A DNA stretch of 64,000 bases from Patescibacteria group bacterium UBA924 (GTDB lineage Bacteria; Patescibacteriota; Microgenomatia; UBA1400; PJMF01): assembly GCA_002293725.1 (NCBI GenBank), contig DBDU01000026.1, positions 6,313 through 70,312 of the forward strand, given 5' to 3'. This document shows positions 36,718 through 64,000 of the stretch, one piece after another; the stretch's first letter is position 1; every line of letters starts with the position of its first letter. The translations under genes and the position numbers were made by a program. The notes under the pieces were generated by a model. It was not told the origin of the DNA. It saw only the letters and a program-made list of their open reading frames with translations, and searched no databases.

Positions 36718-37056
36718 TTGACGTATAATATCATTATGCCATGTGACATTACCCGACCAAACCTGGATCTTGGCGAGTGCTACGCACTTAATGAAACGCA
36801 GACTGTGCGTGATGTTTACACTGACCCAGCTTTCTTGGTGAACTTAATTGTACGAAATGTATTCGTCGTCGCCGGAATTATTCTCTTTCTTTTAGTGGTT
36901 TACGCTGGTTACTTATTTATTACAGGTGGTACCAAAGGGATTGAGAAAGCTAAAGAAGTGCTTCAAGGTGCATTGATTGGTTTTTTTGTAATGTTTGCGG
37001 CATACTGGATCGTACAGATTATTAAGGTGGTGACAGGGGCTGATATTCCGATCTAA
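36718..37056 (+). CDS. VirB2/TrbC-like pilin-family protein, paralog 1
   Basis: Two hydrophobic helices flank the loop ITGGTKGIEKAKEVLQGALIGFFVMF. An alternative start is the ATG at 36736. Confidence 0.55.
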   Translation: MTYNIIMPCDITRPNLDLGECYALNETQTVRDVYTDPAFLVNLIVRNVFVVAGIILFLLVVYAGYLFITGGTKGIEKAKEVLQGALIGFFVMFAAYWIVQIIKVVTGADIPI

Positions 37057-37121
37057 AAGCGGAACTCTCTCCTAGATTGCAAGTTTTAGGAACCGAAGTA
37101 AAATATCTATCTAGTCATTAC

Positions 37122-37559
37122 ATGAATATACGAAAACGCGTTTCGCTAGCACTTCTCCTCTTAGTGACCTTTTTTGTTGCCACGCCTACTGTCGCTTTAG
37201 CCCAAGTCTTTGGTGAAGTTGAGGCTCCTCCAGGAGTTGCTGAGTACAATGCCCCTCTGGGTGAGGACGGTATCGGTATTATTGTGTTCATGTCCACTCT
37301 CATTCGCATCGCAACTATCGTTGCGGGCATCATTGTCTTCGTCAACTTCATTTTGGCTGGGTATAAGTACATTAGTTCTGATGGCAATGCCAAAGTAAAT
37401 GAAGAAGTGAGAAATCAACTGACATACAGTGTCATTGGTTTGTTAATTATTGTGGCCTCGTACACTATCATCGCCATTATCAGTCTCTTACTCTTTGGAA
37501 AAGCTGACTTTATTCTTAACCCAACAATTACAGGACCAAGTACACCTCAAGTTATATGA
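37122..37559 (+). CDS. VirB2/TrbC-like pilin-family protein, paralog 2
   Basis: A signal peptide (MNIRKRVSLALLLLVTFFVATPTVALA) is followed by helix, loop (ISSDGNAKVNEEVRNQLTYSVIGLLIIV) and helix. The ORF-track start at 37077 is probably too early. Confidence 0.55.
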   Translation: MNIRKRVSLALLLLVTFFVATPTVALAQVFGEVEAPPGVAEYNAPLGEDGIGIIVFMSTLIRIATIVAGIIVFVNFILAGYKYISSDGNAKVNEEVRNQLTYSVIGLLIIVASYTIIAIISLLLFGKADFILNPTITGPSTPQVI

Positions 37560-37951
37560 TGTTGCCAACCCTTCTCGCACAAGCAAATCTCGGCGGCGGC
37601 TTTACTCCACCAGGCGGAGAGAACACTACCTTTGTTCCCTCTAATCTTGATTCTGCTGAAGGAGTTTTCACTACTGGCTCAAACTTGATTTCGTATATCT
37701 TTACCTTCTTAACTGTTTTTGCTGGCATCATGTTCCTCTACCAATTCATCCGTGGAGCACTTGCCTGGATCTCTGCTGGTGGTGATCAAAAGAAGATTTC
37801 TGAAGCACGAGACATGATTACTCAGGGAGTAATTGGCTTAGTGATTGTCATTGCTGCCTACTCTATTATTGGTTTGATCAGTACCGTCCTCGGGCTCGAT
37901 CTCTTGAACCCAGGTCAACAACTCTTAGAACTGGTTCCACAACCAATCTAA
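37556..37951 (+). CDS. VirB2/TrbC-like pilin-family protein, paralog 3
   Basis: The start overlaps the paralog 2 stop (ATGA). The loop reads ISAGGDQKKISEARDMITQGVIGLVIVI. Confidence 0.55.
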   Translation: MMLPTLLAQANLGGGFTPPGGENTTFVPSNLDSAEGVFTTGSNLISYIFTFLTVFAGIMFLYQFIRGALAWISAGGDQKKISEARDMITQGVIGLVIVIAAYSIIGLISTVLGLDLLNPGQQLLELVPQPI

Positions 37952-37957
37952 ATACTT

Positions 37958-38404
37958 ATGAAGAAATACGTCGCACTCATCACCGCCTTCATCCTCCTCT
38001 TTACGGGAGTATTTTTGGCAACTGCATTACCTGTTTCTGCTCAGGTACCTCCTCTTCAAAACGAAGCTATTCCAGACAATCTTTCTAACTACGGTGAAGC
38101 TCGCACTGGTGCCAGTGCGGCTTTCTACTTAGTTTTCATCTGGCGAGCCTTGATTTTTGTCGGTGGCTTAATGGTAATCATCTACTTCATCTTGGCTGCC
38201 TTTGAGTGGATTACGGCCAATGGTGAAGCCAGTAAAATCAGCTCTGCCAGAAATAAAATGACTGGTGCGATTGCTGGATTTATCGTCTTGTCTGCACTTT
38301 TTGTCCTGCTTGAGTTCTTAGGTGGTTTATTTGGCTTTGATGTCTTATCACCGACAATTCCTACGCCTACACAAGCACCAGTAAATCCAGGTACATTTAT
38401 ATGA
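37958..38404 (+). CDS. VirB2/TrbC-like pilin-family protein, paralog 4
   Basis: A signal peptide (MKKYVALITAFILLFTGVFLATALPVSA) is present. The loop reads ITANGEASKISSARNKMTGAIAGFIVL. Confidence 0.55.
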   Translation: MKKYVALITAFILLFTGVFLATALPVSAQVPPLQNEAIPDNLSNYGEARTGASAAFYLVFIWRALIFVGGLMVIIYFILAAFEWITANGEASKISSARNKMTGAIAGFIVLSALFVLLEFLGGLFGFDVLSPTIPTPTQAPVNPGTFI

Positions 38405-38802
38405 TGATGCTTCCTTCTTTCCTTCAAGTTACACTCGATCTTCGTGGTGAAGCAGTTGAACAACAGCTTCCTTTTGTTAGCGCGGGTGAAGGTGGTTTTG
38501 AGCGATTTTTAAGTAGCATTTTGACCGCACTGATGGCTCTCGCTGCACTTGCAGTACTCATCTTCCTGCTCTGGGGTGCGTTCGACTGGATTAACTCTGG
38601 TGGTGAAAAAGGCAAGGTTGAATCTGCACGTAACAAGATGACCGGAGCCGTTATGGGTTTGGTTATGCTCGCTGTGGTTTTAGCCATTTTCATGTTTATT
38701 CAACAGATTTTGGGTATTCGCATTTTGAACTTCGTTGGTCAGCCAAGTTCTACTCCTGCACCTCGAGTAGTACCAGGAAGATTCCAGCCTACTCAGTTTT
38801 AA
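38401..38802 (+). CDS. VirB2/TrbC-like pilin-family protein, paralog 5
   Basis: The start overlaps the paralog 4 stop. The loop reads INSGGEKGKVESARNKMTGAVMGLVML. Confidence 0.55.
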   Translation: MMMLPSFLQVTLDLRGEAVEQQLPFVSAGEGGFERFLSSILTALMALAALAVLIFLLWGAFDWINSGGEKGKVESARNKMTGAVMGLVMLAVVLAIFMFIQQILGIRILNFVGQPSSTPAPRVVPGRFQPTQF

Positions 38803-38857
38803 GCTGGAGATAGCGGAATAAACCGTGAGTGTGCTAAAGTAAAAAAGAGAAGAATCC

Positions 38858-38886
38858 TTGACGGGATCTCGAAGAAAACATATAAT
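38858..38886 (+). promoter_or_regulatory. Sigma-70-type promoter for paralog 6
   Basis: A -35 TTGACG and a -10 TATAAT are separated by 17 bp. An AAAGGAG RBS sits 6 bp before the ATG at 38932. Confidence 0.5.
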
Positions 38887-38931
38887 TTAAACAGTATCTC
38901 AACGATACTAAACAGTAACAAAAGGAGTCAC

Positions 38932-39333
38932 ATGAAAAAACACCTGAAAGCACTCGCCGCTACAGGAAGCGCTGTGGGTATGTATCTTTCTACCGCAGTT
39001 GTCTCAACTGTAAAGGCTCAATACGATGTAGCCGTTCCAACTGGTTATGCTACCAATATTGGTAACTTAATTAGTTTCGTGCTTCGTGTAGTTTTAGCAG
39101 TTGGTGCTTTACTCGTCTTCGGTTTCTTAGTGCTGGGTGGTATCGAGTACATTACCTCAGGCGGTGAAAAAGGTAAAACTGAAGCTGCACGTAACAAAAT
39201 TACGGCTGCTATCGTTGGTTTAATTATCTTAGCCGCATCTTGGGCTATCCTAAACTTGGCCTTAGGATTCTTAGGCTTGAGTGGTTTAGAAGGTGCTTTA
39301 CAAGAAGTGGGTGATATTAACGAAACCCGCTAA
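38932..39333 (+). CDS. VirB2/TrbC-like pilin-family protein, paralog 6
   Basis: The loop reads ITSGGEKGKTEAARNKITAAIVGLIIL. Nucleotide-level similarity to paralog 5 is visible across this block. Confidence 0.55.
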   Translation: MKKHLKALAATGSAVGMYLSTAVVSTVKAQYDVAVPTGYATNIGNLISFVLRVVLAVGALLVFGFLVLGGIEYITSGGEKGKTEAARNKITAAIVGLIILAASWAILNLALGFLGLSGLEGALQEVGDINETR

Positions 39334-39357
39334 AGCATTTTTAGTAAATGAAAACAG

Positions 39358-39382
39358 AACCCCCGCTAATGCGGGGGTTTTT
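39358..39382 (+). terminator. Rho-independent terminator after paralog 6
   Basis: A 9-bp GC-rich stem (AACCCCCGC / GCGGGGGTT) with loop TAAT is followed by TTTTT. Confidence 0.7.
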
Positions 39383-39384
39383 GA

Positions 39385-39390
39385 TATAAT
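39385..39390 (+). promoter_or_regulatory. -10 box (TATAAT) 10 bp upstream of the paralog 7 ATG; short or leaderless transcript
   Basis: The element tataat is followed by ttgactgtc and then the ATG at 39400. Confidence 0.35.
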
Positions 39391-39399
39391 TTGACTGTC

Positions 39400-39831
39400 A
39401 TGAAATCTCGACCCCTCTCAATACTCACTTTCCTGCTCTCTTTCACAACCGCTGCACTCATCTTTGCCCAACCCGTTGCTGCGCAAACTAGCCCTTGGGG
39501 TGGAGTGTGTACAGATGATCGCACTGCTACAGGTGTAGCTACGATCCAAGGTTTTCAATGTTTGATTGGTAATGTTCTACAAGTTGGGGTAGCTGGAGTT
39601 GGCTTGGCAGGTTTTGTGATGATGATTATTGGAGCCTTTAAGTACTTGCTCTCTGGTGGCAATGCTAAAGGGATCGATGAGGGTCAAAAAACAATGACTT
39701 ATGCTATTGGCGGACTTATTCTGGCGCTCAGTGCCTTCTTTATTTTGAACATCATTTCTGACTTCACCGGCGTGCAAAGTATTATGAACTTTAGAATTCC
39801 GGCACCCGGAATTAATGCCGATATTCCTTAG
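39400..39831 (+). CDS. VirB2/TrbC-like pilin-family protein, paralog 7
   Basis: A signal peptide (MKSRPLSILTFLLSFTTAALIFAQPVAA) is present. The loop reads LSGGNAKGIDEGQKTMTYAIGGLILAL. Confidence 0.55.
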   Translation: MKSRPLSILTFLLSFTTAALIFAQPVAAQTSPWGGVCTDDRTATGVATIQGFQCLIGNVLQVGVAGVGLAGFVMMIIGAFKYLLSGGNAKGIDEGQKTMTYAIGGLILALSAFFILNIISDFTGVQSIMNFRIPAPGINADIP

Positions 39832-39876: not shown

Positions 39877-42800
39877 ATGGCCTCAACCCGGAAAAGATCT
39901 CTAGTTCCGATTCTCTTGTTCTGTGTCTTACTGACCTTAGTGGTGGCGAAGGTGATCAACTTTTTATTACCAAAGCCTTTAGCCATCCAGCCTCCGACCA
40001 TTCCAATTGCCGCTCCTATCGCTGCCAATAGAAACGTCGATCCAAATAGTATCCGTGTTGTCGCGCAACTTGCTCAAGGCACGATTCCTCAGCAACCAAC
40101 CTCTACTCCTGTTTATGCCAGTTGTGCGGAGATTCCAGAACCTCCATCTGAAGAGGGCATCTTCCCCAACTGTAGTGTTTCTAATATCGCCGACTTTGTT
40201 GCTCCAGATTGTGGTGGCGTAGGTTCAAGTTGTGGAGTTGTTAATGGTAGCTCCATAACCTTAAGCGACTCGTATATCGGAAATGTGACCAATGAAGTTG
40301 AAGTTATCAAAAAAGACTCGACAGGCACATACATTAAGCAAAAATCAAATGATATTCACTTCATCTACCGCCGAAATCCTGATGGCAGCGTGAGTTTAGT
40401 ACAAGATACTATCTGGGGCGGTGGTCCGGCAGGTGGTTTCTTCACTTGTGACGGAACAACTCAAGAAGCGTTCTATCGTGTATACGACGCAAATGGCAAT
40501 CTAGGTAACAGTCAGTACGCCAGCTCTGCAACTTGTGGCGGCCCAGAACACCAGAACGTCAGTGTTTTAGGCACCTTCAAAAAAGTTAGTGATAGTGGCA
40601 TCAATATCAACGACCCTGGCACAGACCCACTCATTTCTGATGGCTCTTTAACTTCTTGTAACGTTAGCGGCCAAACTGGCATTCCAGTTGGAAATAAAAA
40701 TCGCCTAATTTATCACGGAAATGCTGTCTGTAACGGGGTTCCTTTTGAGATGATTGCGATGCAGAATACCGAGGGCGCAGGTGCTGGTGAAGTTAACATG
40801 TACTGCAAAGGAAAAGGTATCTGTGCGTTTTACCAGTTACTGGACCTGACAGTCGAAGAAAACAAACCCATTAACTGGGATGGCAAAGATCTTTGTAACT
40901 TACAAGCTGGTGGCAGCCGTGAAAATCTGACGACCTACTTTGAGTACAACCTTCAACGTCAGTGTAAAGAAACTCCCACCAAGGTTTTAAACAACTTTCT
41001 GGATGAGTACTCCGTGAGCTGTGTGCCTGAGGCTGACTATATCTTGAGTTTCCTCGACCGAGAGCTGTGCGCTCTCACAGATAAAGGCTGCTACAACTGG
41101 AACACTACTGGTGACTTGCGCTTTGCTGCTAGCGGTTCACTCTTTGGTCTCTTCCGAAATCAAAATGCAGTTGAAGCTCGATATAACACCATGAACGGAC
41201 TAAAAGATAAAGATCGTCAGGAATCCATTGAGGCATACCTAACCGCCAAAGTTGATGAGCTGCCGTTGTCTGCACAAAGTTCTAATATCCAGTTCAATGG
41301 TCTGAACCCAGCCAACGCCGAAAACTTAACAATGTATCAATCTCCGCTGTATAAGCTCAGTACTCTCGAGCAGCAGTGTCAACTTGTGTATGACAAGCTA
41401 ACTGCCGTGGAAGAGCTCTGTTTGCCTTTTAATCGAATTGAGGGCACCGAGAACGAGCCTTGTGCAATCAACCAATTTTTGCCCAATACCAGCTTGCGAT
41501 ATACCGACATGTTAACCAAGATGCGTGCGCCGAATGGTGAGTCGAAGTGTGAGTCACTCATGAACCCAAGTGCTAATAATACTGAGGCGACTGCACTGCG
41601 TGATCAAATTTTAAGTATTGATCCCGCTATGGAAGTTGCTTACCGGCCAGCATTTATCGTCGTAGCTAGTTTTGTAGGTAAAGATCCTGGTGAAATCTTA
41701 AATCCAGAGTTCTTGTCTCAGGGAAACGACAAATCAAAGTTCTGGCAAGTTGACTATATGGAAGTCAAAGTTCCCACTTTTGGTTCTGACTTCATGCATA
41801 AAGACAATATGGCAAATGCCAGTAATCCGACTCGTCCCGGTTCATCTTACCGAGATCCACTCCGTTTCTTGGCCGACGTCCTGACCACACCGGAAATTCA
41901 AGAAATGTACCGCCAAGAAGAAGAAAATGATCGCAATGCTATTCGTAGCAAAGTAATTGTTCCTCCTGATCGTGGCGCGGTGCAGCCTGGTGACATCATT
42001 GGTATGGGTGGGTACCCAATTAAGTGTCGTTTCCAAAAAGGTACCTATACTGAAGACGCATGTGATTACATGGCTCGAGCACTGATCGCATTTATCAATG
42101 CAAGTAATGTTGTACCTGTAACACCAGGTGAAGGCGAAGGTGGTGCTAGCGTCACTCGTCAATTTAGTCCTGCCCGTTCCTGGCTCCCTGCCTCCAAATG
42201 TGATACCAGTGGTTCTCAGGGAGCGTTGTACGAAAAAAATCTCTATGGGAATTCAGTCCTCACTGAAGATCCCGTTGATCCGAAGTATCGTGTCGCAGAA
42301 GAAGCTCAAACAATAGGCTCAAAGCTCGAAGCAGTTAACCAAGGTTTTTACGAAAAGAAACTCGAGGGCTTTGCCGAGGTAGAAGCTAACGTCACTGACA
42401 TGAATCCCCCCCCGGGAGCTCAAGGCCTAAAAGGTGGTGATTTCGGGCATACACAAGTCTTCTTCGTGTCTCCACATAACTACACTCTTTTATATGCCCA
42501 AAACGCAATGTTGTCGTTGTTAACCGAAGAACAACAAGAGATCTTCCTGAAGAACGAGAACTTCAACTCAGTTATGAAAACCACCGGATTAGACAACTTC
42601 TCTAGCTCGATTGCGATTAGTTACTATGATGATGCCACACCAGGAACCACTCCGCCGCCAGTCATTCCTGGCGAAACTGCGCCTCCATTAAACCGCAAAC
42701 CAGTCACTGCAGAGCTACAACGTAAGAAAGATGATGAACCACCGAATCAGGGTAAGACTCTGGATAGCCCATTGATGTGGCAAGTTGCTGGAAGCATTGC

Positions 42801-43593
42801 GAACATTCCAACTCGTCTTTACACTTTGGTTTCCACTACCTTGGATAACCCAACTCGCCTCTTTACTTTAGGCTGTACAGGGTCATATGCAACTGAGCAG
42901 TGGCTACTCGGTCGTTGTACTCCAGTCAAACCAGAAGACGCTGCAACTAACCCAGGAAATGTACCTCCCTCTAATAACGCCAGCAATCAATGTGTGGCAG
43001 TTTATATGGATGCGGCTGAGGCACAGACAGCAGCGGCTGAGATCCGCGCCAATTTACCAGGTCAACAACTGCAAAGTCCAAGCTTTGCGGGATGGGCAAG
43101 ATACTACAGTGTGGGTGATCGACCTGAGATTCAACATCTCTTCCAAAACCACTGTAATAATGGTCAGCCTTGTATCGACTACATCTTGGATCAAGTGCTC
43201 AACACCTCAATCAATGGTAAGACACTTAATCCATATCTCGTAATGTCAATTGCGATGAATGAGACAGGTGGCTTAATCAGCTCTAAGCCTGGCTATGTTG
43301 GTCCTCACTTTGGTTGTGGTATAGGTGGAAGTGGCCAGGGCGGTCAGATCATTTCCGACGGCAGCATCGAAAGTAAGCTGCAATGTTTGACGGGCTTTTT
43401 CCAAAATTATGCCGCACGTACTAGACCAGAAGAGCAATCCGATGACGCAGCACTTACTCTGTATGGCTACCGCAATGGTTCCCGCAACAACAACTTGGTT
43501 AAAATTATGGGTATCTTGAGCAATGGTAAGTATCCGTTGGAAAGTTGTAATGGCTCTGGAACAACACCTGCTCCAAGCCCCACCCAAAATTAA
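39877..43593 (+). CDS. Large (1238 aa) secreted or membrane-anchored protein of unknown function, with a possible C-terminal lysozyme/transglycosylase-like region
   Basis: An N-terminal signal-anchor (LVPILLFCVLLTLVVAKVINFLL) is followed by a Cys-containing ectodomain. The C-terminal block PYLVMSIAMNETGGLISSKPGYVGPHFGCGIGG resembles an SLT 'A.a..ES/TG' catalytic region. Confidence 0.55.
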   Translation: MASTRKRSLVPILLFCVLLTLVVAKVINFLLPKPLAIQPPTIPIAAPIAANRNVDPNSIRVVAQLAQGTIPQQPTSTPVYASCAEIPEPPSEEGIFPNCSVSNIADFVAPDCGGVGSSCGVVNGSSITLSDSYIGNVTNEVEVIKKDSTGTYIKQKSNDIHFIYRRNPDGSVSLVQDTIWGGGPAGGFFTCDGTTQEAFYRVYDANGNLGNSQYASSATCGGPEHQNVSVLGTFKKVSDSGININDPGTDPLISDGSLTSCNVSGQTGIPVGNKNRLIYHGNAVCNGVPFEMIAMQNTEGAGAGEVNMYCKGKGICAFYQLLDLTVEENKPINWDGKDLCNLQAGGSRENLTTYFEYNLQRQCKETPTKVLNNFLDEYSVSCVPEADYILSFLDRELCALTDKGCYNWNTTGDLRFAASGSLFGLFRNQNAVEARYNTMNGLKDKDRQESIEAYLTAKVDELPLSAQSSNIQFNGLNPANAENLTMYQSPLYKLSTLEQQCQLVYDKLTAVEELCLPFNRIEGTENEPCAINQFLPNTSLRYTDMLTKMRAPNGESKCESLMNPSANNTEATALRDQILSIDPAMEVAYRPAFIVVASFVGKDPGEILNPEFLSQGNDKSKFWQVDYMEVKVPTFGSDFMHKDNMANASNPTRPGSSYRDPLRFLADVLTTPEIQEMYRQEEENDRNAIRSKVIVPPDRGAVQPGDIIGMGGYPIKCRFQKGTYTEDACDYMARALIAFINASNVVPVTPGEGEGGASVTRQFSPARSWLPASKCDTSGSQGALYEKNLYGNSVLTEDPVDPKYRVAEEAQTIGSKLEAVNQGFYEKKLEGFAEVEANVTDMNPPPGAQGLKGGDFGHTQVFFVSPHNYTLLYAQNAMLSLLTEEQQEIFLKNENFNSVMKTTGLDNFSSSIAISYYDDATPGTTPPPVIPGETAPPLNRKPVTAELQRKKDDEPPNQGKTLDSPLMWQVAGSIANIPTRLYTLVSTTLDNPTRLFTLGCTGSYATEQWLLGRCTPVKPEDAATNPGNVPPSNNASNQCVAVYMDAAEAQTAAAEIRANLPGQQLQSPSFAGWARYYSVGDRPEIQHLFQNHCNNGQPCIDYILDQVLNTSINGKTLNPYLVMSIAMNETGGLISSKPGYVGPHFGCGIGGSGQGGQIISDGSIESKLQCLTGFFQNYAARTRPEEQSDDAALTLYGYRNGSRNNNLVKIMGILSNGKYPLESCNGSGTTPAPSPTQN

Positions 43594-43601: not shown

Positions 43602-44609
43602 TTACACTAGGCGAACACCTGGATTACGCGGAACTTGGTCAGGTTTGTGTTTCACTTTAGTTTTTTCAGTGATTGGTGCTTCTTTAGGCGTTACTGGAAT
43701 GAACTTCTTGGTCATCCCATCTTGGGAAGAAGCTTGCCTAGGCGCATGTTCTTCTTGAATACGAACGCGGCGCGCACCCATCACTAATAACTTCCCGGCG
43801 ATCTCAAAGGTTTGGGCCGTCACAGCGAGTGACTTAAATGTTTGCGTCGCTGACTCAATCGCCGCCAGTAACGTTGTAGAGACCTCTTCGCCAAGCTCTA
43901 CTCCCAGTTCTTGTAACAGATAGGCCACAACCTCCGCATAGGATGCGGCTCCCGAAGTATTGACTTTGACCGTGCCAAAAGGTGTATCGAAGGTGTGAAC
44001 ACTAACAATGCTGGTCTGTTCAAACAACTGTTCGTAACCGATGTACAGTTGGTCTAGATCCTCCAAGCGATCAACGCCAAAGGTAAAGATCAGATCAGCG
44101 TCTGCTCCGCTTAAGGTATAGGTCACTAAAGAGGAATCGAGTGGCTTAGCACCTCGACGAGGCTGAACCACTAAGTGAAAAGTTTTTGTTTCCTCATCAA
44201 TGTGATAACTGACTTTGTCCACTTGCTCTTCGCTATAAGGAAAAGACACATCAAGGTTTTTATTTCCAAGTTCTTTACTGACTTCACCTACTCCTGAAAA
44301 CTGCTGCAGTCTCTCTGCAACTGGACCTGGACTGGAAACCGTAACATTCTTTCCTAATGCTTGTAAGCCTTTGCCAAAACTGACCGCACTCAAAATAGTA
44401 TCGGCACTGGCCTTTGCAGGAAAAAAGATACAAACTGTCTGAGCGCTCGACAGTAAGGTAGAAATGGTAGACAGAGATTCCGCTGTCATCATATGTCCGC
44501 TTCTTTCTCTTAGTGATAACAGACGGGCAGGTATTTGATCAGGTATAACAGAGAATGAACGGGTCACGCAAGTGGCGTTTAATATGTAGCTACAGCCTTT
44601 TTTTCTCAA
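43602..44609 (-). CDS. DHH-family (NrnA-like) phosphoesterase homolog, apparently lacking the DHH motif
   Basis: The N-terminal pattern (TVCIFFPAKASADTILSAVSFGKGLQALGKNVTV) and a DHHA1-like block (GAASYAEVVAYLLQELGVELGEEVSTTLLAAIESATQTF) are present. No DHH tripeptide is seen. The start is likely MMTAE at about 44490. Confidence 0.4.
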   Translation of the reverse strand: MRKKGCSYILNATCVTRSFSVIPDQIPARLLSLRERSGHMMTAESLSTISTLLSSAQTVCIFFPAKASADTILSAVSFGKGLQALGKNVTVSSPGPVAERLQQFSGVGEVSKELGNKNLDVSFPYSEEQVDKVSYHIDEETKTFHLVVQPRRGAKPLDSSLVTYTLSGADADLIFTFGVDRLEDLDQLYIGYEQLFEQTSIVSVHTFDTPFGTVKVNTSGAASYAEVVAYLLQELGVELGEEVSTTLLAAIESATQTFKSLAVTAQTFEIAGKLLVMGARRVRIQEEHAPRQASSQDGMTKKFIPVTPKEAPITEKTKVKHKPDQVPRNPGVRLV

Positions 44610-44648: not shown

Positions 44649-44655
44649 AGCGGTT

Positions 44656-54200: not shown

Positions 54201-54236
54201 TGTTTGTCGGCTCTGCTCCTCTTCTGAGGAGCTTTT

Positions 54237-56083: not shown

Positions 56084-59000
56084 ATGGTTGATTCCCTTGC
56101 GCCAGCTGCAGAGCAGTTGAAGAAGTGCGCTGTTCATCACTCCATCTCTCAAAAAGACCTTGAACGACTTTTAGGTGTCATTATTGAGTCGCTTCAAGTT
56201 GGAGAGAGTGTTCGCGATCCAGAGACTCAACTTCCGGCTATCTATCCCGAGTGGTTAGACATCGAGTATGTTCGTGAACACTCACCCAACAACACAACTC
56301 CAGCTGGTTTTTACGTTAACCCCCGCTTGCAAAGGCGCAACGAAGAGACACCTGCTAATATTTTGGCGCTGAAAGATGTTTGTGACATTTTCAAAAGCAT
56401 CGCTGGTTTGGGAGAAGATGGTGACAACTTCATTGATGAAAAGATTCGGAGCGGTGAGTATGGTGGCTATGATCTTCTCGATGAAGAACAAGCTAACCTG
56501 ATCAACCGCATTAAAAATGATTACAATGGCGAACTACTCCCTCCGGACCTGAACTACCTTCGTGGTGACTCCCGTGTCTTACTATCTATCATCGCCACGC
56601 TCCATGCTGGATCGGCAGCAGAAGGTGAAGAAGTTGAAACGGTACTAACCCTTCCTGACGAGTTCAAAGCATTACTAGAGGGTGACCTTAACTTAGGCGT
56701 TTCTTGGGAGTGGGTAAAACCGCTCATTGAAGACGTTCTCCCCACGAAGCTCAATGCGCCTACAGTAGTTTTCCGTTACAACGATCAGAAACGTGCTGTC
56801 GCTGTCACCGAAATTCGTTTTTTCCTTAATAATTGGTTGCGAAAGTTCTACGAGGAGTACCAGCAACGGTTCCGTGAAGTTGGATTAGAGCTTCCTGAAA
56901 CAAAGCTGTTCGATGCAACGAACAAACTCGTTGCTTACTTTGACCTTCCTTATTGGGTTGAGCTGGATCAAGACATTATCACCTTTATCTCTAAAGAGCT
57001 CTCCCCACTGATTGAGCAGTATCTGAAACGTGGTCAGCCCACAGGGGTAGGCCTTGGATACCAAAAAGAAAATACCGAAGACGAAGAGAAAAAAGAGAAA
57101 CTTACTGAGAACATCAAGAATGTTGAAGAAGCTGACGATCTGCTTGAGCGTTTCTCACAAGCGGGAAAGTCTTACTCCCAAGAATCTGAACGTTTAACTA
57201 CCATTCTGTTACCTCAGTTGTTTAACATGCATGGCATCAGCCGTGATCTCACACAGCTGGGCCAGATTGATGATAACAGTCTCTTCCTGGTGGAGCGAGA
57301 GTTTAGACAAGAACTAGAAAACGTTCTACGTACTCTGACACCACAAGAGTTTGCGCTTCTTTCTGAACGTGGTGGTTCTCTGGAATTTCGTTTAATCGTT
57401 CTCAGAAAGTTGTATGGCAAGCTTTCTACAAACCCTCGTTTTATTGCTTCAATTCAAGAGTTCAAAGAAAACTATGTTTCTTACTTAGAAGAACGGGCTG
57501 CTGATGGTGACCAGGCCGCCCAACGAGAACTCAACAAACTAGAGCGTCAAATCAATCTTCCAGATCAGCGGTTTGATGAGGAGCTCGCTAAGAGCGAAAA
57601 AGTTCCGCCAGAAGAATGGACAAAGGAATTGAGTAAAGGTGGAAAAGGTGTTGGTGAAGTAACACTCCAAGAGTTTGCAGACCTTCACAAGATTTCCCAA
57701 GAGGATTTTCGTTTCCTCGCAACAAGACTTGTTGGAAATGATATCGACTTCCCAACACTCCTACGAAACTTAGACGTCATCATCGCTGAGCGGTGGTCGC
57801 CAGAGCAAATTCGTGGACTTGATCCCGGTGGTTCTACAGCTATCTTTGGTCTCGTTCTTCCAGATTATCTCACTCAAGATGGTCACCGTTTCCAACTCTT
57901 CCTCAACTTGTGTGCAGAGTACCTTTATGCCCGTCGCCAACATCTTGCTGACCACTATCAGCTGGATGCAATTAGTCGCCAGACTGGGAGCGGGTCAACA
58001 GACCTTGCCAGCCTCCAAGCCGCTCAAGAAATGGCTGAGCGGTACAAAGAGTATGGTGGTGGTGAAGCTCTGGTGGTCGGACGCGCCAGTGATAGTAAGC
58101 GTGTAGAAGAGTATCAACACGGAAACAAATTTGGCGTGGGAATTTCCGGAGTTCACAGTGAAACCAAAGAGCAACGAAAAGGACAGTTAGAAACTCATAA
58201 AAATACTACTCGTGCGCGTTTCCACGAGATGAGCATTGATGACAAACGGAAACAGCTTCAAAGTTTAGGTCTTTTAACTCCAGATAATGAACAGTTCATT
58301 GGCGATGACGAGCTGCGAATGGCTCAGCTTTTAGATACTGGACTTAATGAAGACTATGACGACGGTGTTCGTGGCTTGGATGACTTTTCGTACTACGAAG
58401 ACCAAGATAACGGATACGTCCAAGAGCAGCTTGGAACTGGACAACGAAGTATCCCTCAACGCTATGGAAGACCGGGTGGTCGCTCTCTGCTAAAAGGGGC
58501 TCTTAACTTAAAAAATCGATTCCAGAAAGCACAAAAAAGAATCAAGCAAGCCAAGAAGATTGCCAAAGCAGCCAAAAAACTGGCTGACAAAGGTTTAGAG
58601 AAAGTTGAAGCTGCTGCTGCATCGGTGGTGATGGGTCCGTTAGCACAGAATAAAACGCTTCGTCGTGGCATTCTTGGAGTATTAACAGCCCTCGTTCTTG
58701 ATACTCTAAACATGATCCAACAAGGCTTCTTTGCCAAAGTTGGAGCTTTTTTGGGTGGAGCTTTAGGTGGAATTGCTGGTGGAGCAGCCGGTGGTGTTTT
58801 TGTTATTCCTGGCGCAATTGTGGGCACCTTTGGTGGCGCTCGACTAGGTCATGGAATTGATCAGTGGTTTGCCAATACTTTTGGTGGTGCCCCCGAGGTT
58901 CGAGTCTCAAGCCCCGGTTTGAGCTTACCACTAGCTAAACAATCAGCCGATACTTTAACTGGTAGCGCCAAAGTTAGTGGCGGCGAGTTTGCCAAGACAA

Positions 59001-60151
59001 GTACTAATGCTTGGCCTGCAATCGCAACATCTGGTGGCTTCATGGCCACGGTAGGACTAGCTGGCGCAGTTATTACGGCTTCCATTCAACCCCCACCACT
59101 CGGAACTATTGGCGCTAGTGGACTGGAGTCTGAGTATGTGATCGTCGAAAAGGTCATTACTGACCCGGCTAACTTTACAGGAGATGTTGTTCCCTCATCT
59201 ATTACCTACACCATTAGTGTTGAAACAAAAGGTAACTACCAAATTGAGATCGTCAACTTCCAGGATCAAATTCAGTTAACCCCAAATACTGAGGTGCGTG
59301 GCTCAGAAGCACCCCCGGCGGCCCTTTCCTGTCCTGATTTTACATTTGCCAACCTTGCCACTCGGGTGATTGGTCCTAATGACGGAAAAGTTCAGATCGG
59401 AACGTGTACTATCACCCTTGATCAGAGTTACCACGATACTGGGATCTTTAATAAGTTCACCATGCAGTTTAAGGTTTCAGAAAATGGCCAAGCTGTCACC
59501 AACTCTAGCCCTGATTTCAACTGTGGTGAAACGAGCGATACTTTCTGTGCAATTTCTGGTGTTCAAGCCTGTCTAGGAGACTGTCCACTTCAACAAGAGG
59601 GCTGTTGGCCAACATCGGGAAGGTTAACTCAAGGTCCTGGAGGTGAGGGTTCTCATAGAAACACTGCTGCTATTGATATTGGTGCGAGGCTTGGTACGAA
59701 TGTCTATGCCACATTTGACGGCACTGCCTATGCCTTTGACACTTACGCCGCAGAGCCATCTAACCAAGGTTTGATTGATCGCACAGGAAAGAGTGGTGTC
59801 TACTCCAAGTCTTATGGAAAGCATGTTGTTCTCATTACCAATCAAGGCTTTGCACTTCTTTTTGCTCACTTAAATAGTCACTCTTCTACCCTGCGCTTAG
59901 GTACTCCAGTTCCAGTTACAGCAGGTACTATTCTTGGATATGTGGGAAATAGCGGAAGTACCACTGGCTTACAAATGGGAATGCACCTTCACTACGAGTA
60001 TCGCGTTCCAACGGGTAATAGTTGGCAAACGATACGATCTACCAATGGTGCTCAAATTATTGGGGTTCTTCCTAATGAAACCGGAGAAGCGTTTGTCTTT
60101 AATGGCACACGACAAGTTACAAGTTGTTATGATGCAAGTACTCCACAATAA
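56084..60151 (+). CDS. Giant (1355 aa) protein with a ~900-aa N-terminal soluble region, a glycine-zipper membrane segment and a C-terminal M23 (LytM-type) metallopeptidase domain
   Basis: The glycine-zipper segment reads FAKVGAFLGGALGGIAGGAAGGVFVIPGAIVGTFGGARLG. The M23 blocks are HRNTAAIDIGARLGTNVYATFDGTAYAF and GYVGNSGSTTGLQMGMHLHYEY. Confidence 0.7.
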   Translation: MVDSLAPAAEQLKKCAVHHSISQKDLERLLGVIIESLQVGESVRDPETQLPAIYPEWLDIEYVREHSPNNTTPAGFYVNPRLQRRNEETPANILALKDVCDIFKSIAGLGEDGDNFIDEKIRSGEYGGYDLLDEEQANLINRIKNDYNGELLPPDLNYLRGDSRVLLSIIATLHAGSAAEGEEVETVLTLPDEFKALLEGDLNLGVSWEWVKPLIEDVLPTKLNAPTVVFRYNDQKRAVAVTEIRFFLNNWLRKFYEEYQQRFREVGLELPETKLFDATNKLVAYFDLPYWVELDQDIITFISKELSPLIEQYLKRGQPTGVGLGYQKENTEDEEKKEKLTENIKNVEEADDLLERFSQAGKSYSQESERLTTILLPQLFNMHGISRDLTQLGQIDDNSLFLVEREFRQELENVLRTLTPQEFALLSERGGSLEFRLIVLRKLYGKLSTNPRFIASIQEFKENYVSYLEERAADGDQAAQRELNKLERQINLPDQRFDEELAKSEKVPPEEWTKELSKGGKGVGEVTLQEFADLHKISQEDFRFLATRLVGNDIDFPTLLRNLDVIIAERWSPEQIRGLDPGGSTAIFGLVLPDYLTQDGHRFQLFLNLCAEYLYARRQHLADHYQLDAISRQTGSGSTDLASLQAAQEMAERYKEYGGGEALVVGRASDSKRVEEYQHGNKFGVGISGVHSETKEQRKGQLETHKNTTRARFHEMSIDDKRKQLQSLGLLTPDNEQFIGDDELRMAQLLDTGLNEDYDDGVRGLDDFSYYEDQDNGYVQEQLGTGQRSIPQRYGRPGGRSLLKGALNLKNRFQKAQKRIKQAKKIAKAAKKLADKGLEKVEAAAASVVMGPLAQNKTLRRGILGVLTALVLDTLNMIQQGFFAKVGAFLGGALGGIAGGAAGGVFVIPGAIVGTFGGARLGHGIDQWFANTFGGAPEVRVSSPGLSLPLAKQSADTLTGSAKVSGGEFAKTSTNAWPAIATSGGFMATVGLAGAVITASIQPPPLGTIGASGLESEYVIVEKVITDPANFTGDVVPSSITYTISVETKGNYQIEIVNFQDQIQLTPNTEVRGSEAPPAALSCPDFTFANLATRVIGPNDGKVQIGTCTITLDQSYHDTGIFNKFTMQFKVSENGQAVTNSSPDFNCGETSDTFCAISGVQACLGDCPLQQEGCWPTSGRLTQGPGGEGSHRNTAAIDIGARLGTNVYATFDGTAYAFDTYAAEPSNQGLIDRTGKSGVYSKSYGKHVVLITNQGFALLFAHLNSHSSTLRLGTPVPVTAGTILGYVGNSGSTTGLQMGMHLHYEYRVPTGNSWQTIRSTNGAQIIGVLPNETGEAFVFNGTRQVTSCYDASTPQ

Positions 60152-60174
60152 AGTGTCAGGAGAGTAACTAAAAA

Positions 60175-61227
60175 ATGACAGAGCTGCCCTCAAATCAACC
60201 TCAGTATGAAGAGCTTCAAGATATTCGCTCTTCACTTGAACAACCAAGAAAGAAACCGTCTCGGTTGTGGATCGGACTTGGAATAGTTGCTGTAGTTTTA
60301 TTAGTTGTCGCTGCTATCATCCAAACCTTCACTCCACGAACTGTTCGTATTCCCGAAACTCCTTTTGTCGTTACAAACTCGAATAACACACTTCCAAACC
60401 TAACAGAGGTTTCTTACTCCGGACCAACGCCAGACTTCCCCACTCAGTTTTCTGTATACGCCGTCACTCAGACACTCCCCGAACAAGTTGTTGTCGGTGA
60501 CATGCTAGCGAAGTACGGACTAATGAAACCCAGAAACGATGCCAACTACTGGATCAATGGTCCAATTTCATTAATCCAAGACACCTCTCCGCCAATGTAC
60601 ACACTAGTGCTCAAGGATCCTGAGAATGAAGCACTTCCTATTATTAACATCGAACAAGCTCGCTTAGTTGCCTCTCGTTTCATGCAAGATACTTTCCCTG
60701 AGTTTCAGTTTAGTTTCATCCCAGGATCTGAAGGTTACTTTATTCTCAGCACAGAGCCAGGTGGGCCCGTTCCCCCTGAACAAGCTACTGGCGTAACTCT
60801 TTCTTTCACTCCTACATTAGAAACTGAGAACTTGCCAATCTTTTATGACAAATCCTTTGAACCACCATTTATCGTTACGGTAGATGGAAACAACACTATT
60901 CGGACACTTCGTTTCTCACCCCTTTTTAAACAATATACTAAAGTTGATACCCAAAACGTCCTTTCACTCGATGAATCATTAACCCAAATAGAGAGCGGCG
61001 TGGCTTCAATTATTAGTGCCACTATTGAAGACATGAATAGAGTTTCGATGTCCGAGCTCACTGCTGCTAACTTTAGCTCTGTGGGGTTAGAGTATCGCCA
61101 AGATCCCAACTTTGACGTGCTCTATCCTTTCTTCCACTTCTATGGAACAGGAACCAGTAGTAATGGGGTGACTGCCGAAATTGAAGTGATCACTCCAGCA
61201 GTAAAGTTAACTGGCTTTCAACGATAG
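60175..61227 (+). CDS. Bitopic membrane protein (350 aa); VirB8/TcpC-like by topology and position only
   Basis: A short cytoplasmic N-terminus is followed by one TM (LWIGLGIVAVVLLVVAAIIQTF) and a ~290-aa extracytoplasmic region. Confidence 0.45.
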   Translation: MTELPSNQPQYEELQDIRSSLEQPRKKPSRLWIGLGIVAVVLLVVAAIIQTFTPRTVRIPETPFVVTNSNNTLPNLTEVSYSGPTPDFPTQFSVYAVTQTLPEQVVVGDMLAKYGLMKPRNDANYWINGPISLIQDTSPPMYTLVLKDPENEALPIINIEQARLVASRFMQDTFPEFQFSFIPGSEGYFILSTEPGGPVPPEQATGVTLSFTPTLETENLPIFYDKSFEPPFIVTVDGNNTIRTLRFSPLFKQYTKVDTQNVLSLDESLTQIESGVASIISATIEDMNRVSMSELTAANFSSVGLEYRQDPNFDVLYPFFHFYGTGTSSNGVTAEIEVITPAVKLTGFQR

Positions 61228-61305
61228 CTATTTAGTAGTCAAAAAAATCCGATCTCAATCTAAAAAACAGAGTCGAAAACTGGTATAGTTCAGAACTACC
61301 TGTCT

Positions 61306-63276
61306 ATGAGAGAACACGCCTTACCGCAGGACGTTACTGGCTATAAATTCCACATCATCGGCAACATGACGCTAAAGCAATTTGGCGAGGTGGCAGCCGG
61401 TTGTATTGTGGGTTTTTTGTTATACCAAACCAACCTCTACCCGATGATCAAGATTCCCTTGATTATCTTAGCGGCTGGTTCAGGGGCACTTATTGCCTTT
61501 GTCCCAATTGAAGAGCGACCACTTGACCAATGGATCACTGCTTTTTTCCGCGCTTTGTATAGACCAACTCAGTACTACTGGAAAAGAATGGTTAAAATTC
61601 CTGAGCCCTTCTTATATGAACCTCGGGTTGAACTCAAAACAGTAGTTGCTGATGTTGACCTTACCCCAGCCCGTCGACAGCGAGTAAAGGACTACCTTCG
61701 TTCTATTGACGAGAAACAAGCACCCCTCGATCAACTTGAAACATATACTGAGCAGCGTCTTAATGAGGTCATGGGTGTCTTTGGTCAACCGCTTCAAACT
61801 CCCCAACTTGAGACAACCACCACACCAGAGCAAACAGAGAGTCCTGACACCACGGACATCTTGAATGCCAGTCCAGAAAACGTAAGCGATACCGTTGATA
61901 GTCTTTCCTTTACCGGTCGTGCAATGACAGAGGAACCCGTCATTGAACAAGGTCCCTCAGCTGAAGAAGTAGAAATGAGCAACAACGTCTTACGTTTATT
62001 CGATACTAACGAAACGGTTGCCCCAGAGCCAGAAGTTATCCCTCCCCCCCCTCAATTTGAACCACCAGCAGAAGTGCTTCCAGAACCAGCACCGGAAGTT
62101 GAGTTGCCCAAACTTGATAGCATTCCCGATAAGGTTGACGTTTCTATCCCAGAACAAGTTCCTGTTGAAGCTCCTGAGCCTACTCCACCGCTTGAACCAG
62201 TTCCCGAGCCAGAGCCCCCACCAGAACCGTTTCCAGAGCCAAAACCACTTCCGCAGCCTGAACCTGTAACCGAGCTGAAACCACCAAAACCAACCGTCTT
62301 GCCTGAAGTTAGTTTGGAACAAAAACAAGAGAACTCAGTTCAACTTCCTGAAAAAGCAGAAGCTGTTCCTGAAGATTTGACGAGTATTCCTGAAGTGGCT
62401 CTCGAACCAGACGAAACAAATACAGAAGAGCCGGCTCCTGAAACAGAGCTTCCTCAAATTTCTACCGTATTTGACGGTGGAGGTGGCTCAGCCTCTGCAG
62501 AAAGCTTGCCTTCCGTTTCTGTAGATACCTCAACGAAGTACAGCCTTAGCGCCCATGGTTCACCCAATGCAGACAGCAGCGAGGTCGCACAAATTGCCGA
62601 TGTCATTGCCAAAAATGCTGGAAACCCTGTCGGGACAGCGGGAAAGTTCCGTTCTCGTGGCAAGAACAGCGTTCAGTTTAAAACACGCCGCAACGACCCA
62701 TCATCAGAAGCAGTTCTGCCTCACATCTTAGATATGACTGGCTCTTCAGATTCAGTCATTATGAAGCCTAAAGAAACACCGCCGCCGCCAAAAGAAACTC
62801 CTCAATCAAAAGAAGTTCTTGTTCCTGAGCTCGAAGAAATTCGGGTTGAACGCACTGTGGAAGCTGCTGAGAATACCCAGGATAAATCCGATGACAAAAA
62901 AGAAATGTCGACCGCTGTTGACCCATCTCTCCTACAGATGCCTGAAAAGGAAAGTCCTGTGCAAGGCTCAGTAGCTGTCACCTTTAATGCAAACTTGCCA
63001 TTTCCAGAGAAACCTACCGTTGCTAACAAAGTGGTGGGCATGGTCATTGATCAAGCTGGAAACTCGCTCCCCAACACCATTGTGGAGATTCTCACACCTC
63101 AAGGGGTTCCGGCTCGCGCCGTCAAAACAAACCCACTCGGTCAGTTCTTCATCGCTACTCCGCTTAATCCCGGCGATTATCTGATCACCGCCGAAAAAGA
63201 AGGTCTTACCTTTGACACACATCAGTTGTCTGTCACAAATAAAATTATCGATCCTATTGAAATAAGAGCCAATTAG
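61306..63276 (+). CDS. PrgI/VirB3-like N-terminal membrane domain fused to a long Pro/Glu-rich linker and a C-terminal carboxypeptidase-regulatory-like (transthyretin-fold) domain
   Basis: The N-terminus (LPQDVTGYKFHIIGNMTLKQFGEVAAGCIVGFLLY...PLIILAAGSGALIAFVPIEERPLDQWITAFFRALYRPTQYYW) fits the PrgI-family pattern (v..dl..yk.k..g.lTlrQ...two TM...rPld.w...f). The C-terminus (VVGMVIDQAGNSLPNTIVEIL...GQFFIATPLNPGDYLITAEKEGLTF) resembles a CarbopepD_reg-like domain. Confidence 0.5.
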   Translation: MREHALPQDVTGYKFHIIGNMTLKQFGEVAAGCIVGFLLYQTNLYPMIKIPLIILAAGSGALIAFVPIEERPLDQWITAFFRALYRPTQYYWKRMVKIPEPFLYEPRVELKTVVADVDLTPARRQRVKDYLRSIDEKQAPLDQLETYTEQRLNEVMGVFGQPLQTPQLETTTTPEQTESPDTTDILNASPENVSDTVDSLSFTGRAMTEEPVIEQGPSAEEVEMSNNVLRLFDTNETVAPEPEVIPPPPQFEPPAEVLPEPAPEVELPKLDSIPDKVDVSIPEQVPVEAPEPTPPLEPVPEPEPPPEPFPEPKPLPQPEPVTELKPPKPTVLPEVSLEQKQENSVQLPEKAEAVPEDLTSIPEVALEPDETNTEEPAPETELPQISTVFDGGGGSASAESLPSVSVDTSTKYSLSAHGSPNADSSEVAQIADVIAKNAGNPVGTAGKFRSRGKNSVQFKTRRNDPSSEAVLPHILDMTGSSDSVIMKPKETPPPPKETPQSKEVLVPELEEIRVERTVEAAENTQDKSDDKKEMSTAVDPSLLQMPEKESPVQGSVAVTFNANLPFPEKPTVANKVVGMVIDQAGNSLPNTIVEILTPQGVPARAVKTNPLGQFFIATPLNPGDYLITAEKEGLTFDTHQLSVTNKIIDPIEIRAN

Positions 63277-63303
63277 TCTGGATGTTTGTTATACTTACTT
63301 CGC

Positions 63304-64000
63304 ATGCCCTCTTCACAAGCAATTACTTCTACTACCCAAGAGTTTCTCGATATCCACGACATCACGGATAATTTATTGCTGCTCAAAAGTGGTGGGGCAG
63401 CTCTAATCGTCCAAGTTACGGCGATGAACTTCGGCTTATTGGCCGAAGAAGAGCAAGATGCCATCATTTATGGTTACGCTGGCTTGCTCAACTCACTCAA
63501 CTACTCTATTCAAATTGTAATTCGCTCCCAAACAAAAGACGTTACCAGCTATCTCAACTTGTTGCGCCAAAAGGAAGAAGAAGCACTCAGCTCTGCCCGC
63601 AAAGAACAAATCCGACAGTATCGTGAGTTTGTTGCTGATCTTGTTCAAGAACGGAATGTCTTGGATAAAAAGTTTTACGTAGTTATTCCAGCTAGTGGCA
63701 TTGAACTCGGCATTGTTCAAGCTCAAAGTATTTTGCCTGGTGTTAAGAACCCTGATATTTCGAGTTTTGATCGCAGCATTATTATCGAGCGCGCCAACAA
63801 CCTGCTTGAGCCCAAGCGGGATCACATCATGGCCCAGTTTGCTCGAATTGGTATGTTTTCTCGACAACTTATGACTCAGGAAATTATTCAGCTTTTCTAT
63901 ACTGCGTACAATCCAGAAGCTTCTGATGGTCAAAAAATGACCGATAGTCGTCAGTACACGTCCACTGCTGTAGAAGGCAACCTGGAAGAAAAGATCTTTG
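63304..64000 (+). CDS. VirB4/TrbE/PrgJ-like conjugal-transfer ATPase, N-terminal part; 3' end lies outside the window
   Basis: The frame is open to the window end. The N-terminal pattern (LLLLKSGGAALIVQVTAMNFGLLAEEEQDAIIYGYAGLLNSL...IQIVIRSQTKDVTSYLN...KKFYVVIPAS) resembles the VirB4 N-domain (kDGS...f.v.g.d....e.e.........ln.l...i..h.v.r......yl....). The gene follows a VirB3-like gene. Confidence 0.45.
   Translation, partial: MPSSQAITSTTQEFLDIHDITDNLLLLKSGGAALIVQVTAMNFGLLAEEEQDAIIYGYAGLLNSLNYSIQIVIRSQTKDVTSYLNLLRQKEEEALSSARKEQIRQYREFVADLVQERNVLDKKFYVVIPASGIELGIVQAQSILPGVKNPDISSFDRSIIIERANNLLEPKRDHIMAQFARIGMFSRQLMTQEIIQLFYTAYNPEASDGQKMTDSRQYTSTAVEGNLEEKIF

Follow-up and report, generated by a model that had tools for sequence, protein, structure and literature searches.

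A cobalamin-clan riboswitch predicted in front of the core genes of a probable chromosomal type IV secretion system in Patescibacteria

The window studied here, a whole stretch of 64,000 nt from Patescibacteria group bacterium UBA924, very probably carries a chromosomal type IV secretion system (T4SS) of the published Patescibacteria (candidate phyla radiation, CPR) class derived from the mating-pair formation type FATA (MPF-FATA), with its VirB4-side gene string placed behind a cobalamin-clan riboswitch. The T4SS-encoding part covers 36.7-64 kb, and the window is part of a metagenome contig of 1,166,179 nt (locus L001) that was found through the PrgI protein; the NCBI copies of the same proteins are hypothetical proteins of "Patescibacteria group bacterium". 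Four blocks can be distinguished: a sigma factor with the pilins and a 1238-aa protein, a protein with a putative VirB6 fold, a trio of 1370, 526 and 506 aa, and the string running from a 612-aa protein to VirB4. The conserved B12-type riboswitch before the T4SS core is the part that looks new, and, riboswitch aside, the locus is an ordinary member of the published class. A full-text search of open-access papers and bioRxiv gave no paper linking a cobalamin/B12 riboswitch with Patescibacteria, CPR or T4SS, which is not proof of novelty.

The riboswitch aptamer was located at 54056..54206 on the plus strand, as a full-length match to the AdoCbl model RF01482 (41.8 bits, E ~1e-5). It was found by a permissive scan, the curated-threshold Rfam scan of the window returning a tRNA only. 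Cobalamin-clan matches of 27-44 bits were present at the same position in 12/12 loci examined; those of L008 (RF00174, 32.7 vs 31.5 bits) and L135 (RF01689, 40.8 vs 36.5 bits) exceeded the curated cut-offs, while nine others fell just under their respective ones. The aptamer was kept even where the homolog of the 612-aa protein was only 25-26% identical. Covariation was evaluated on an alignment of 11 sequences with a hand-specified structure (closing helix, P4, P5, P6 and 3' mini-hairpin): 91.4% of the cells form standard pairs, compared with 32-52% when the partners were slid, both sides change in 16 of the 28 base pairs, and the observed measures were reached by none of 500 shuffles. The RNAalifold consensus recovered most of the specified helices, and the core and the B12 box were invariant across the aligned leaders. 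The 24-nt aptamer core recurs unchanged in at least 120 unrelated metagenome contigs, and most of these matches are ordinary cobalamin riboswitches placed before unrelated genes. This supports the family assignment but also makes the core generic; among these contigs, the T4SS-type expression platform was found only in L095 and L124. With the class-II-like cobalamin riboswitches (RF01482, RF01689 AdoCbl-II and RF00174, clan CL00101) the leader shares the conserved GGUGNAANUCC T-loop helix, the CUGUGCCGCAACGGUAA core, the AAGUCCGAUC B12-box, a covarying closing helix and a short P6, and differs from them in scores that are mostly just below the cut-offs and in a near-invariant platform element, GGACGAGCAUCC. 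The cobalamin-riboswitch-like leader pointed out by an earlier reading of the sequence without database searches (the sequence-only reading) was thus borne out by the model match, the covariation and its presence in all 12 loci, and the leader is best described as a cobalamin-clan riboswitch with a predicted corrinoid ligand.

The expression platform (54171..54239, plus strand) consists of GGACGAGCAUCC at 54171-54182 and a hairpin followed by UUUU at 54215-54236, directly before the ATG at 54237. The hairpin, GCUCCUC-UUCU-GAGGAGC with its UUUU, is terminator-like and at the same time buries the Shine-Dalgarno sequence (SD) of the 612-aa gene; it heads the list of terminator-like sites for 46000-64000, and an SD-sequestering hairpin was observed in 9/9 near-clade leaders. 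In these nine leaders, GGACGAGCAUCC is followed by UGCUCCUC, a loop of 4-7 nt and GAGG(A/G)G, most of them continue with a short U-run or U-rich stretch, and in 8/9 the distance to the start codon is 4-6 nt. In the three most distant loci GGACGAGCAUCC is replaced by CCGACGAGCAUCGG, so that the stem covaries while the CGAGCA loop is fixed. When the 3' arm of the hairpin was omitted from the calculation, GACGAGCA paired with UGCUCCUC in most leaders, with computed energies of -8.6 to -16.2 kcal/mol, and this alternative pairing points to a three-part switch. With corrinoid bound, the aptamer would hold the near-invariant GGACGAGCAUCC, leaving UGCUCCUC to pair with GAGGAGC, so that the SD would be hidden and the terminator-like hairpin would form; with the ligand absent, GACGAGCA would pair with UGCUCCUC and the SD would be freed. 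An OFF switch of this kind is the favoured and most likely model, in which the T4SS core genes would be made when B12 is scarce. The leader of L134 fits this model, since its mini-hairpin CCGA[CGAGCA]UCGG overlaps an SD-like GGAG, as expected for direct occlusion upon ligand binding.

The platforms of the more distant leaders were not uniform. In L135 (20059-20270) the GAGCAU sequence can pair with a start-codon-containing AUGCUC, in L136 (1-252) a separate terminator-like hairpin was found, and the L134 element lies at 19275-19584. The same aptamer thus seems to be combined with several kinds of read-out.

A different reading of the same RNA is that the aptamer is a non-canonical derivative of the cobalamin clan, working as an ON switch through a ligand-stabilised GAGCA/UGCUC helix that frees the SD, or binding another corrinoid-like ligand. 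If the GAGCA...UGCUC helix were a ligand-stabilised equivalent of P13, the anti-SD strand would be sequestered, releasing the SD, and the scores just below the cut-offs of three Rfam models suggest an unusual subclass in which the P6 extension is short or missing. Nevertheless, the overlap between mini-hairpin and GGAG in L134 fits OFF, and the core and B12 box are ordinary cobalamin riboswitch sequences, with the same core in the at least 120 unrelated contigs mentioned above. This possibility was regarded as rather unlikely.

Downstream of the riboswitch, six co-directional genes follow in the order 612 aa, 1355 aa (M23), 350 aa, PrgI/VirB3, 294 aa and VirB4, with intergenic gaps of 8, 23, 78, 27 and 3 nt, and the string ends just before dnaA. 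The first gene encodes a 612-aa cytoplasmic protein (54237..56075, plus strand) with no transmembrane (TM) segment. It gave no match in Pfam, NCBIfam or PHROGs, and its predicted model, of fair quality (pLDDT 75), had no meaningful structural neighbour, so it keeps the hypothetical status that it had been given before. Its family comprises 103 representatives in 1.84 billion proteins and shows many invariant H, D, C and E residues. The 1355-aa protein that follows (56084..60151, plus strand) has a cytoplasmic N-terminal part, TM segments at about residues 890-1000 and an extracellular Peptidase_M23 domain (42.1 bits, residues 1195-1308) with an HLH motif and M23 matches in the PDB, the same architecture as read from the sequence. 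When all the large proteins were scanned against NCBIfam and PHROGs, this M23 domain was found and nothing else. The protein is a candidate cell-wall-remodelling component, analogous to VirB1.

The 350-aa protein (60175..61227, plus strand) is bitopic, as proposed, with one TM segment at residues 31-49 and a conserved position, and it gave no profile match in Pfam, NCBIfam, PHROGs or PDB; by position and topology it may be VirB8-like. The next protein, of 656 aa (61306..63276, plus strand), had been described as a PrgI/VirB3-like fusion and indeed carries a PrgI domain (PF12666, 35.1 bits, cut-off 27, residues 7-88), a Pro/Glu-rich linker and a C-terminal CarboxypepD_reg-like domain at residues 576-639, the latter with 28 bits for a cut-off of 32.3. 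The open reading frame (ORF) starting at 63304 had been taken for the beginning of VirB4. When the contig was followed past 64000, it turned out to be a separate, complete ORF of 294 aa (11999-12883 of L001), whose first 232 codons lie in the window at 63304..64000 on the plus strand, and VirB4 is the next gene, 3 nt downstream. This VirB4 ATPase of 741 aa (12887-15112 of L001, just past the window end) matched P-loop_TraG with 92.5 bits, AAA_10 with 45.3, DUF87 with 41.1 and CagE_TrbE_VirB with 28.6 bits (cut-off 21). The conservation of the 294-aa ORF rivals that of VirB4 (73-89% identity among relatives where the 612-aa neighbour has 38-69%); it occupies the position reported for TrsD, and PF26593 TraC-like is listed for its orthologs in precomputed tables. 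A PDB profile search with the 294-aa family was without match. A weak PHROG match of this ORF to a terminase large subunit was also recorded (E = 2.5e-5).

Since the six genes are co-directional and separated by short gaps with no convincing internal terminator, control of the whole string by the riboswitch is plausible. It is less probable, and in our estimate unlikely, that the riboswitch governs the 612-aa gene alone, which would then have a B12-related job, for example in corrinoid handling or as a B12-independent isozyme, while the T4SS genes have their own promoter. Known cobalamin riboswitches mostly govern B12 synthesis, B12 transport or B12-independent isozymes, and in this respect the leader differs from them, the genes downstream of it being the T4SS core. 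Restriction to the first gene would agree with this usual choice of targets and with the 612-aa protein itself, which is cytoplasmic, rich in invariant H, D, C and E residues and devoid of a T4SS-like fold; moreover, L095 has the same leader before an ORF not detectably similar to the 612-aa family. On the other hand, the M23 giant follows the 612-aa family gene in every locus examined, with a gap of 8-58 nt, no terminator-like site was found in the gap between the 612- and 1355-aa genes, and among the loci seen the 612-aa family is confined to the T4SS context. As for L095 itself, its element (836-1536) has the same aptamer and the GGACGAGCAUCC / GCUCCUC platform, and the downstream ORF, cut by the contig end at 174 aa, has no detectable similarity to the 612-aa family.

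A tentative proposal is that in one Patescibacteria lineage a corrinoid-sensing riboswitch sets the expression of the T4SS core (the VirB4 motor, PrgI/VirB3, the wall hydrolase and partners specific to the lineage) and so ties the host-contact machine to B12 status. If true, it would be the first genetic hint that a Patescibacteria T4SS acquires host metabolites, possibly corrinoids, because B12 riboswitches normally gate genes for B12 acquisition. Another reading makes the T4SS an importer of host material, with ComB-like uptake possibly of corrinoids, and the riboswitch a transporter-type feedback. Typical B12 riboswitches repress B12 uptake systems, and the link between riboswitch and T4SS is conserved. 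A nutrient-acquisition role has also been proposed for the Patescibacteria T4SS (PMC11665869). However, direct evidence of import is absent, none of the components showed a known corrinoid-binding domain, and the fast-evolving cytoplasmic trio better suits exported substrates, so that import was considered improbable.

Patescibacteria are hard to grow, and regulatory logic read from genomes is among the few clues available. A conserved riboswitch before a T4SS core offers a hypothesis that is cheaply testable through B12 binding and operon switching, and it suggests a condition, limitation or supply of corrinoids, for production of the machine, which could guide enrichment, metatranscriptomics and imaging. 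In addition, a native element that puts expression under ligand control would make a useful genetic tool, a need stated by the field (PMC11665869). What is worth following in this locus is the conserved B12-type riboswitch before the T4SS core and, with it, the trio of very fast-evolving cytoplasmic proteins.

The remaining T4SS components lie upstream of the string. Seven VirB2-like pilin paralogs occupy 36718..39831 on the plus strand (ORFs 36718-37056, 37077-37559, 37556-37951, 37958-38404, 38401-38802, 38932-39333 and 39391-39831), and the seven two-helix VirB2/TrbC-like pilins of the sequence-only reading were recovered as such. All seven matched the Pfam family PF18895 T4SS_pilin, those at 38401 (32.0 bits) and 38932 (34.4 bits) above the curated cut-off of 26.6 bits and the other five with E = 3e-5 to 1.4e-2. 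Each forms a hairpin of two hydrophobic TM helices, preceded in 4/7 by an additional N-terminal signal-like helix, and the loop between the helices has a common GG(E/D/N)xxK..A(R/K) motif. Pairwise identity among the seven is 18-35%, in line with the roughly 25% reported for Patescibacteria arrays, and one-to-one collinear orthologs of all of them were found in L132 and L133 with 48-70% identity. Since each pilin has its own collinear ortholog in relatives, the seven are ancient, individually maintained paralogs; for the same reason, a recent duplication for antigenic variation was rejected. Two further pilin-domain ORFs lie outside the array on the plus strand, a secreted protein of 507 aa that carries a T4SS_pilin domain at its C-terminus (29047-30570, PF18895 27.7 bits) and a 102-aa pilin (30580-30888, PF18895 33 bits), giving nine in the window.

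A polytopic membrane protein of 573 aa (44620..46341, plus strand, with a probable start at 44656) has a signal-like helix and about seven TM helices. The VirB6 fold was the top match of its predicted model in two independent structure searches, and a VirB6 fold is assigned with moderate confidence, by fold rather than by sequence; a TrbL match was obtained for 1/36 of its homologs (E = 0.015). Compared with the VirB-type T4SS of R388 Trw (TrwI/VirB6; PDB 7o3v and 8rt9), sequence identity is 12-14%, and, in contrast to that system, neither an outer-membrane core complex nor a VirB5 was recognised in this locus.

By analogy with known T4SSs, VirB4, anchored by PrgI/VirB3, would power assembly and transport through a membrane channel containing VirB6, the M23 domain would open the cell wall, and the pilins would form a VirB2-type surface filament or conduit touching the host cell. 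The locus matches the Patescibacteria-clade T4SS (Quinonero-Coronel et al. 2025, PMC12102498) point by point, which makes it an already known kind of system; the term "uncharacterised" in the sequence-only reading does not hold, its architecture being a published one (PMC12102498; PMC12857230). In the published systems, the VirB4 belongs to a clade related to monoderm MPF-FATA and is accompanied by PrgI, a hard-to-detect VirB6 and M23-type hydrolases (PMC12102498; PMC12857230); TrsD, remotely homologous to the N-terminal part of VirB4, adjoins virB4, and the pilin arrays comprise 2-11 VirB2-like genes with an average identity of 25% (PMC12102498). Relaxases are almost absent, and the type IV coupling protein (T4CP) is encoded elsewhere, with the locus near dnaA (PMC12102498; PMC12857230). 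Likewise, the locus described here is chromosomal, beside dnaA/dnaN/rnpA, and has no relaxase, a small ORF in the TrsD position, PrgI/VirB3, a divergent VirB6, tandem divergent PF18895 pilins, an M23-type wall hydrolase and a VirD4-like ATPase encoded elsewhere. It differs from that clade in the cobalamin-clan riboswitch, which is unmentioned in Quinonero-Coronel et al. 2025 and Wang et al. 2023, in a lineage-specific accessory set made up of the 612-aa family, the M23 giant of 1355 aa and the cytoplasmic trio (1370/526/506), in the fusion of PrgI to a CarboxypepD_reg-like domain, and in a pilin array whose collinear orthologs number exactly seven across the clade. Membership of this VirB4 in the Patescibacteria clade is suggested by two things, the organism label and the shared architecture.

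Among the MPF-FATA systems of Firmicutes (pCF10 Prg/Pcf, pGO1 Trs and pIP501), the same monoderm organisation is found, lacking VirB7/9/10 and with a PrgI-type VirB3, a VirB4 motor and a dedicated peptidoglycan hydrolase, and TrsD is reported in the pGO1 subclass. Unlike them, this cluster has no relaxase, oriT or T4CP, it is chromosomal and next to the replication origin, it includes VirB2-like pilins, which the Gram-positive systems are without, and its hydrolase is of M23 rather than SLT/CHAP type. The Gram-positive type of T4SS proposed earlier is upheld by the presence of VirB4, PrgI/VirB3, VirB2-like pilins and an M23 wall hydrolase.

A DNA-transferring conjugative element of MPF-FATA type (an integrative and conjugative element, ICE, or an integrated plasmid) can be practically dismissed: although conjugation machines have VirB4, PrgI, a VirB6-like protein and a VirD4-like ATPase at their core, domain scans of the window ORFs and 9 kb downstream showed neither a relaxase nor an integrase, the placement between mevalonate genes and dnaA is kept in relatives, base composition is uniform over the whole 64-kb window, the VirD4-like ATPase lies 22 kb off among housekeeping genes, and relaxases lie near virB4 in only 15 cases among 109 Patescibacteria relaxases (PMC12102498). 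An ICE or plasmid origin was accordingly rejected on chromosomal context and synteny. With no relaxase, the role would be host interaction or exchange and not conjugation; the sequence-only reading had already suggested that it may be a host-interaction or pilus system, and host interaction, by analogy and in a chromosomal locus that ends at dnaA-dnaN, is probably right. The T4SS of Southlakia epibionticum, the only species tested in this way, was reported to be essential for epibiotic growth (transposon sequencing of Wang et al. 2023, as cited in PMC12102498 and PMC12857230), and the role of the Patescibacteria T4SS has been called "completely unknown" (PMC11665869).

Several results weigh against the proposed riboswitch-controlled T4SS. 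The window aptamer, with its 41.8 bits, is below the curated Rfam cut-off of 50 for RF01482. No complement for an L5-L13 kissing loop was found that is conserved across the platforms of all the leaders, and the switch direction is consequently a model only. The evidence for co-transcription of the six genes is their spacing, and the terminator scan was overall at chance level (20 found vs 16 +/- 4 expected). The 64-kb window showed neither a B12-dependent gene nor one for B12 transport. Regarding the protein components, the VirB6 call depends on a model of moderate confidence with Foldseek E-values of 0.03-0.16, and the 573-aa protein has no sequence-profile support (no TrbL match for the protein itself, and nothing among PDB sequences); of the VirB6/TrbL-like assignment made from the sequence, the fold found moderate support and the profile similarity none. 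No VirB8 homolog was demonstrated for the 350-aa protein. Finally, the relation of the 294-aa ORF to TrsD and the VirB4 N-terminus was not reproduced, as the Pfam scan gave no TraC-like match and hhalign against VirB4 gave none.

Conservation of the locus was followed in nine related loci retrieved via homologs of the 612-aa and VirB6-like proteins, and the synteny comparison that had been proposed showed a conserved layout. The full layout, including the divergent sigma factor, the pilin array (seven genes in L132 and L133, where they were counted) and the position beside dnaA, was kept in the nine relatives, even where the 612-aa protein is only about 25% identical, and the location between mevalonate-pathway genes and dnaA was kept in relatives whose shared proteins are 25-90% identical. 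Identity to the window proteins was 77-93% for VirB4, 73-89% for the 294-aa ORF, 58-83% for the VirB6-like protein, 48-70% for each pilin and its own collinear ortholog, 38-69% for the 612-aa, 32-53% for the 1355-aa and 26-51% for the 350-aa proteins, and 25-47% for the 1370-, 526- and 506-aa proteins, beyond which these three were undetectable. In a scan of genome contigs only one related species genome was found, of the lineage of L008, and its label "Pseudomonadales" misfits a Patescibacteria-like gene content.

Within the locus, these last three proteins evolve fastest. The 1370-aa protein (46645..50757, minus strand) is cytoplasmic, with no TM segment, no family match in Pfam, NCBIfam or PHROGs and none in the PDB; only 3 homolog clusters were found in 5.8 billion proteins, and identity is 34-47% in close relatives, with no tblastn signal beyond them. 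The neighbouring 526-aa protein (50776..52356, minus strand) is acidic (D+E 20%) and cytoplasmic, with no TM segment and no family match in the same three databases, and its positional orthologs are 25-29% identical. The 506-aa protein (52503..54023, plus strand), also acidic (D+E 23%), cytoplasmic and without TM segment or family match, has orthologs of 32-43% identity, and in more distant relatives its positional counterpart is on the minus strand. The earlier description of a motif-less cytoplasmic protein with acidic neighbours agrees with these results. Speculatively, the 1370-aa protein is a candidate substrate or effector, or a host-specific factor, and the trio could be host-specific substrates. 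Besides the NCBI copy, the sole close homolog of the 1370-aa protein was P0248 (52% identity), encoded on a Logan contig 329,220 nt long; P0001, a copy of the 612-aa protein with 98% identity, and P0145, a DnaA with at least 90% identity, are likewise from a Logan contig of this length. The 1370-aa protein may thus be hypervariable: if the three share one contig, near-identical strains would differ drastically in this one gene.

All the ORFs listed in the sequence-only reading were present at their coordinates. Among the other genes of the locus, an ECF-type sigma-70 factor (36163..36702, minus strand; Sigma70_r2 46.8 bits, Sigma70_r4_2 28.8 bits) is divergent from the pilin array, a position shared by L132, L133, L134 and L135, and can be inferred to be a candidate regulator. 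The distance from the start of the sigma-factor ORF to the annotated TTG start of the first pilin is about 16 nt (36702-36718), and 34 nt in L132; with a gap of about 16 nt, either the divergent promoters overlap coding sequence or the real pilin start lies further downstream. Directly after the pilin array, the 1238-aa cysteine-rich protein (39877..43593, plus strand) is secreted or membrane-anchored, with a single N-terminal hydrophobic segment that agrees with the secreted protein of the first description. No match was found for it in Pfam, NCBIfam, PHROGs or PDB profile searches, and positional orthologs of 909-1201 aa occupy the same place in all relatives; it may be a surface or pilus-associated factor. 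This gene is separated from the VirB6-like one by an oppositely oriented gene for a DHH-family-like protein of 335 aa (43602..44609, minus strand; PDB 4ls9 "DHH family protein", E = 2.6e-6, with weaker NrnA/RecJ-like matches), which has a minus-strand counterpart of about 300 aa in all relatives. A small ORF of 71 aa (46344..46559, plus strand), without family match, directly follows the VirB6-like gene, and ORFs of 63-74 aa were found at this position in L005, L006 and L007/L133.

Outside the locus, virB4 is followed after a gap of about 150 nt by dnaA, and then by dnaN, rpmH, rnpA and yidC. The housekeeping genes on the 5' side include the mevalonate pathway, UppS, an ATP-dependent DNA ligase, RecF, SpoIID, Pth, Lgt and glycosyltransferases. 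Amid these genes, 22 kb upstream of the T4SS locus, a VirD4/TrwB-like ATPase of coupling-protein type is encoded (778 aa, 12357..14693, minus strand; TrwB_AAD_bind 36 bits, cut-off 20.5, DUF87 37.3 bits and a weak TraG-D_C). This ATPase, the pilin ORFs at 29047-30888, the divergent sigma factor and the DHH-like gene had gone unmentioned in the sequence-only reading. In addition, an archaeal/eukaryotic-type ATP-dependent DNA ligase, a Fic-domain protein and an efflux-type trio of HlyD, ABC and MacB/FtsX components were found in the regions 22052-25008 (minus strand) and 7868-10926 (plus strand), and the sole tRNA of the window is a tRNA-Ile with anticodon UAU at 7360-7436 (plus strand).

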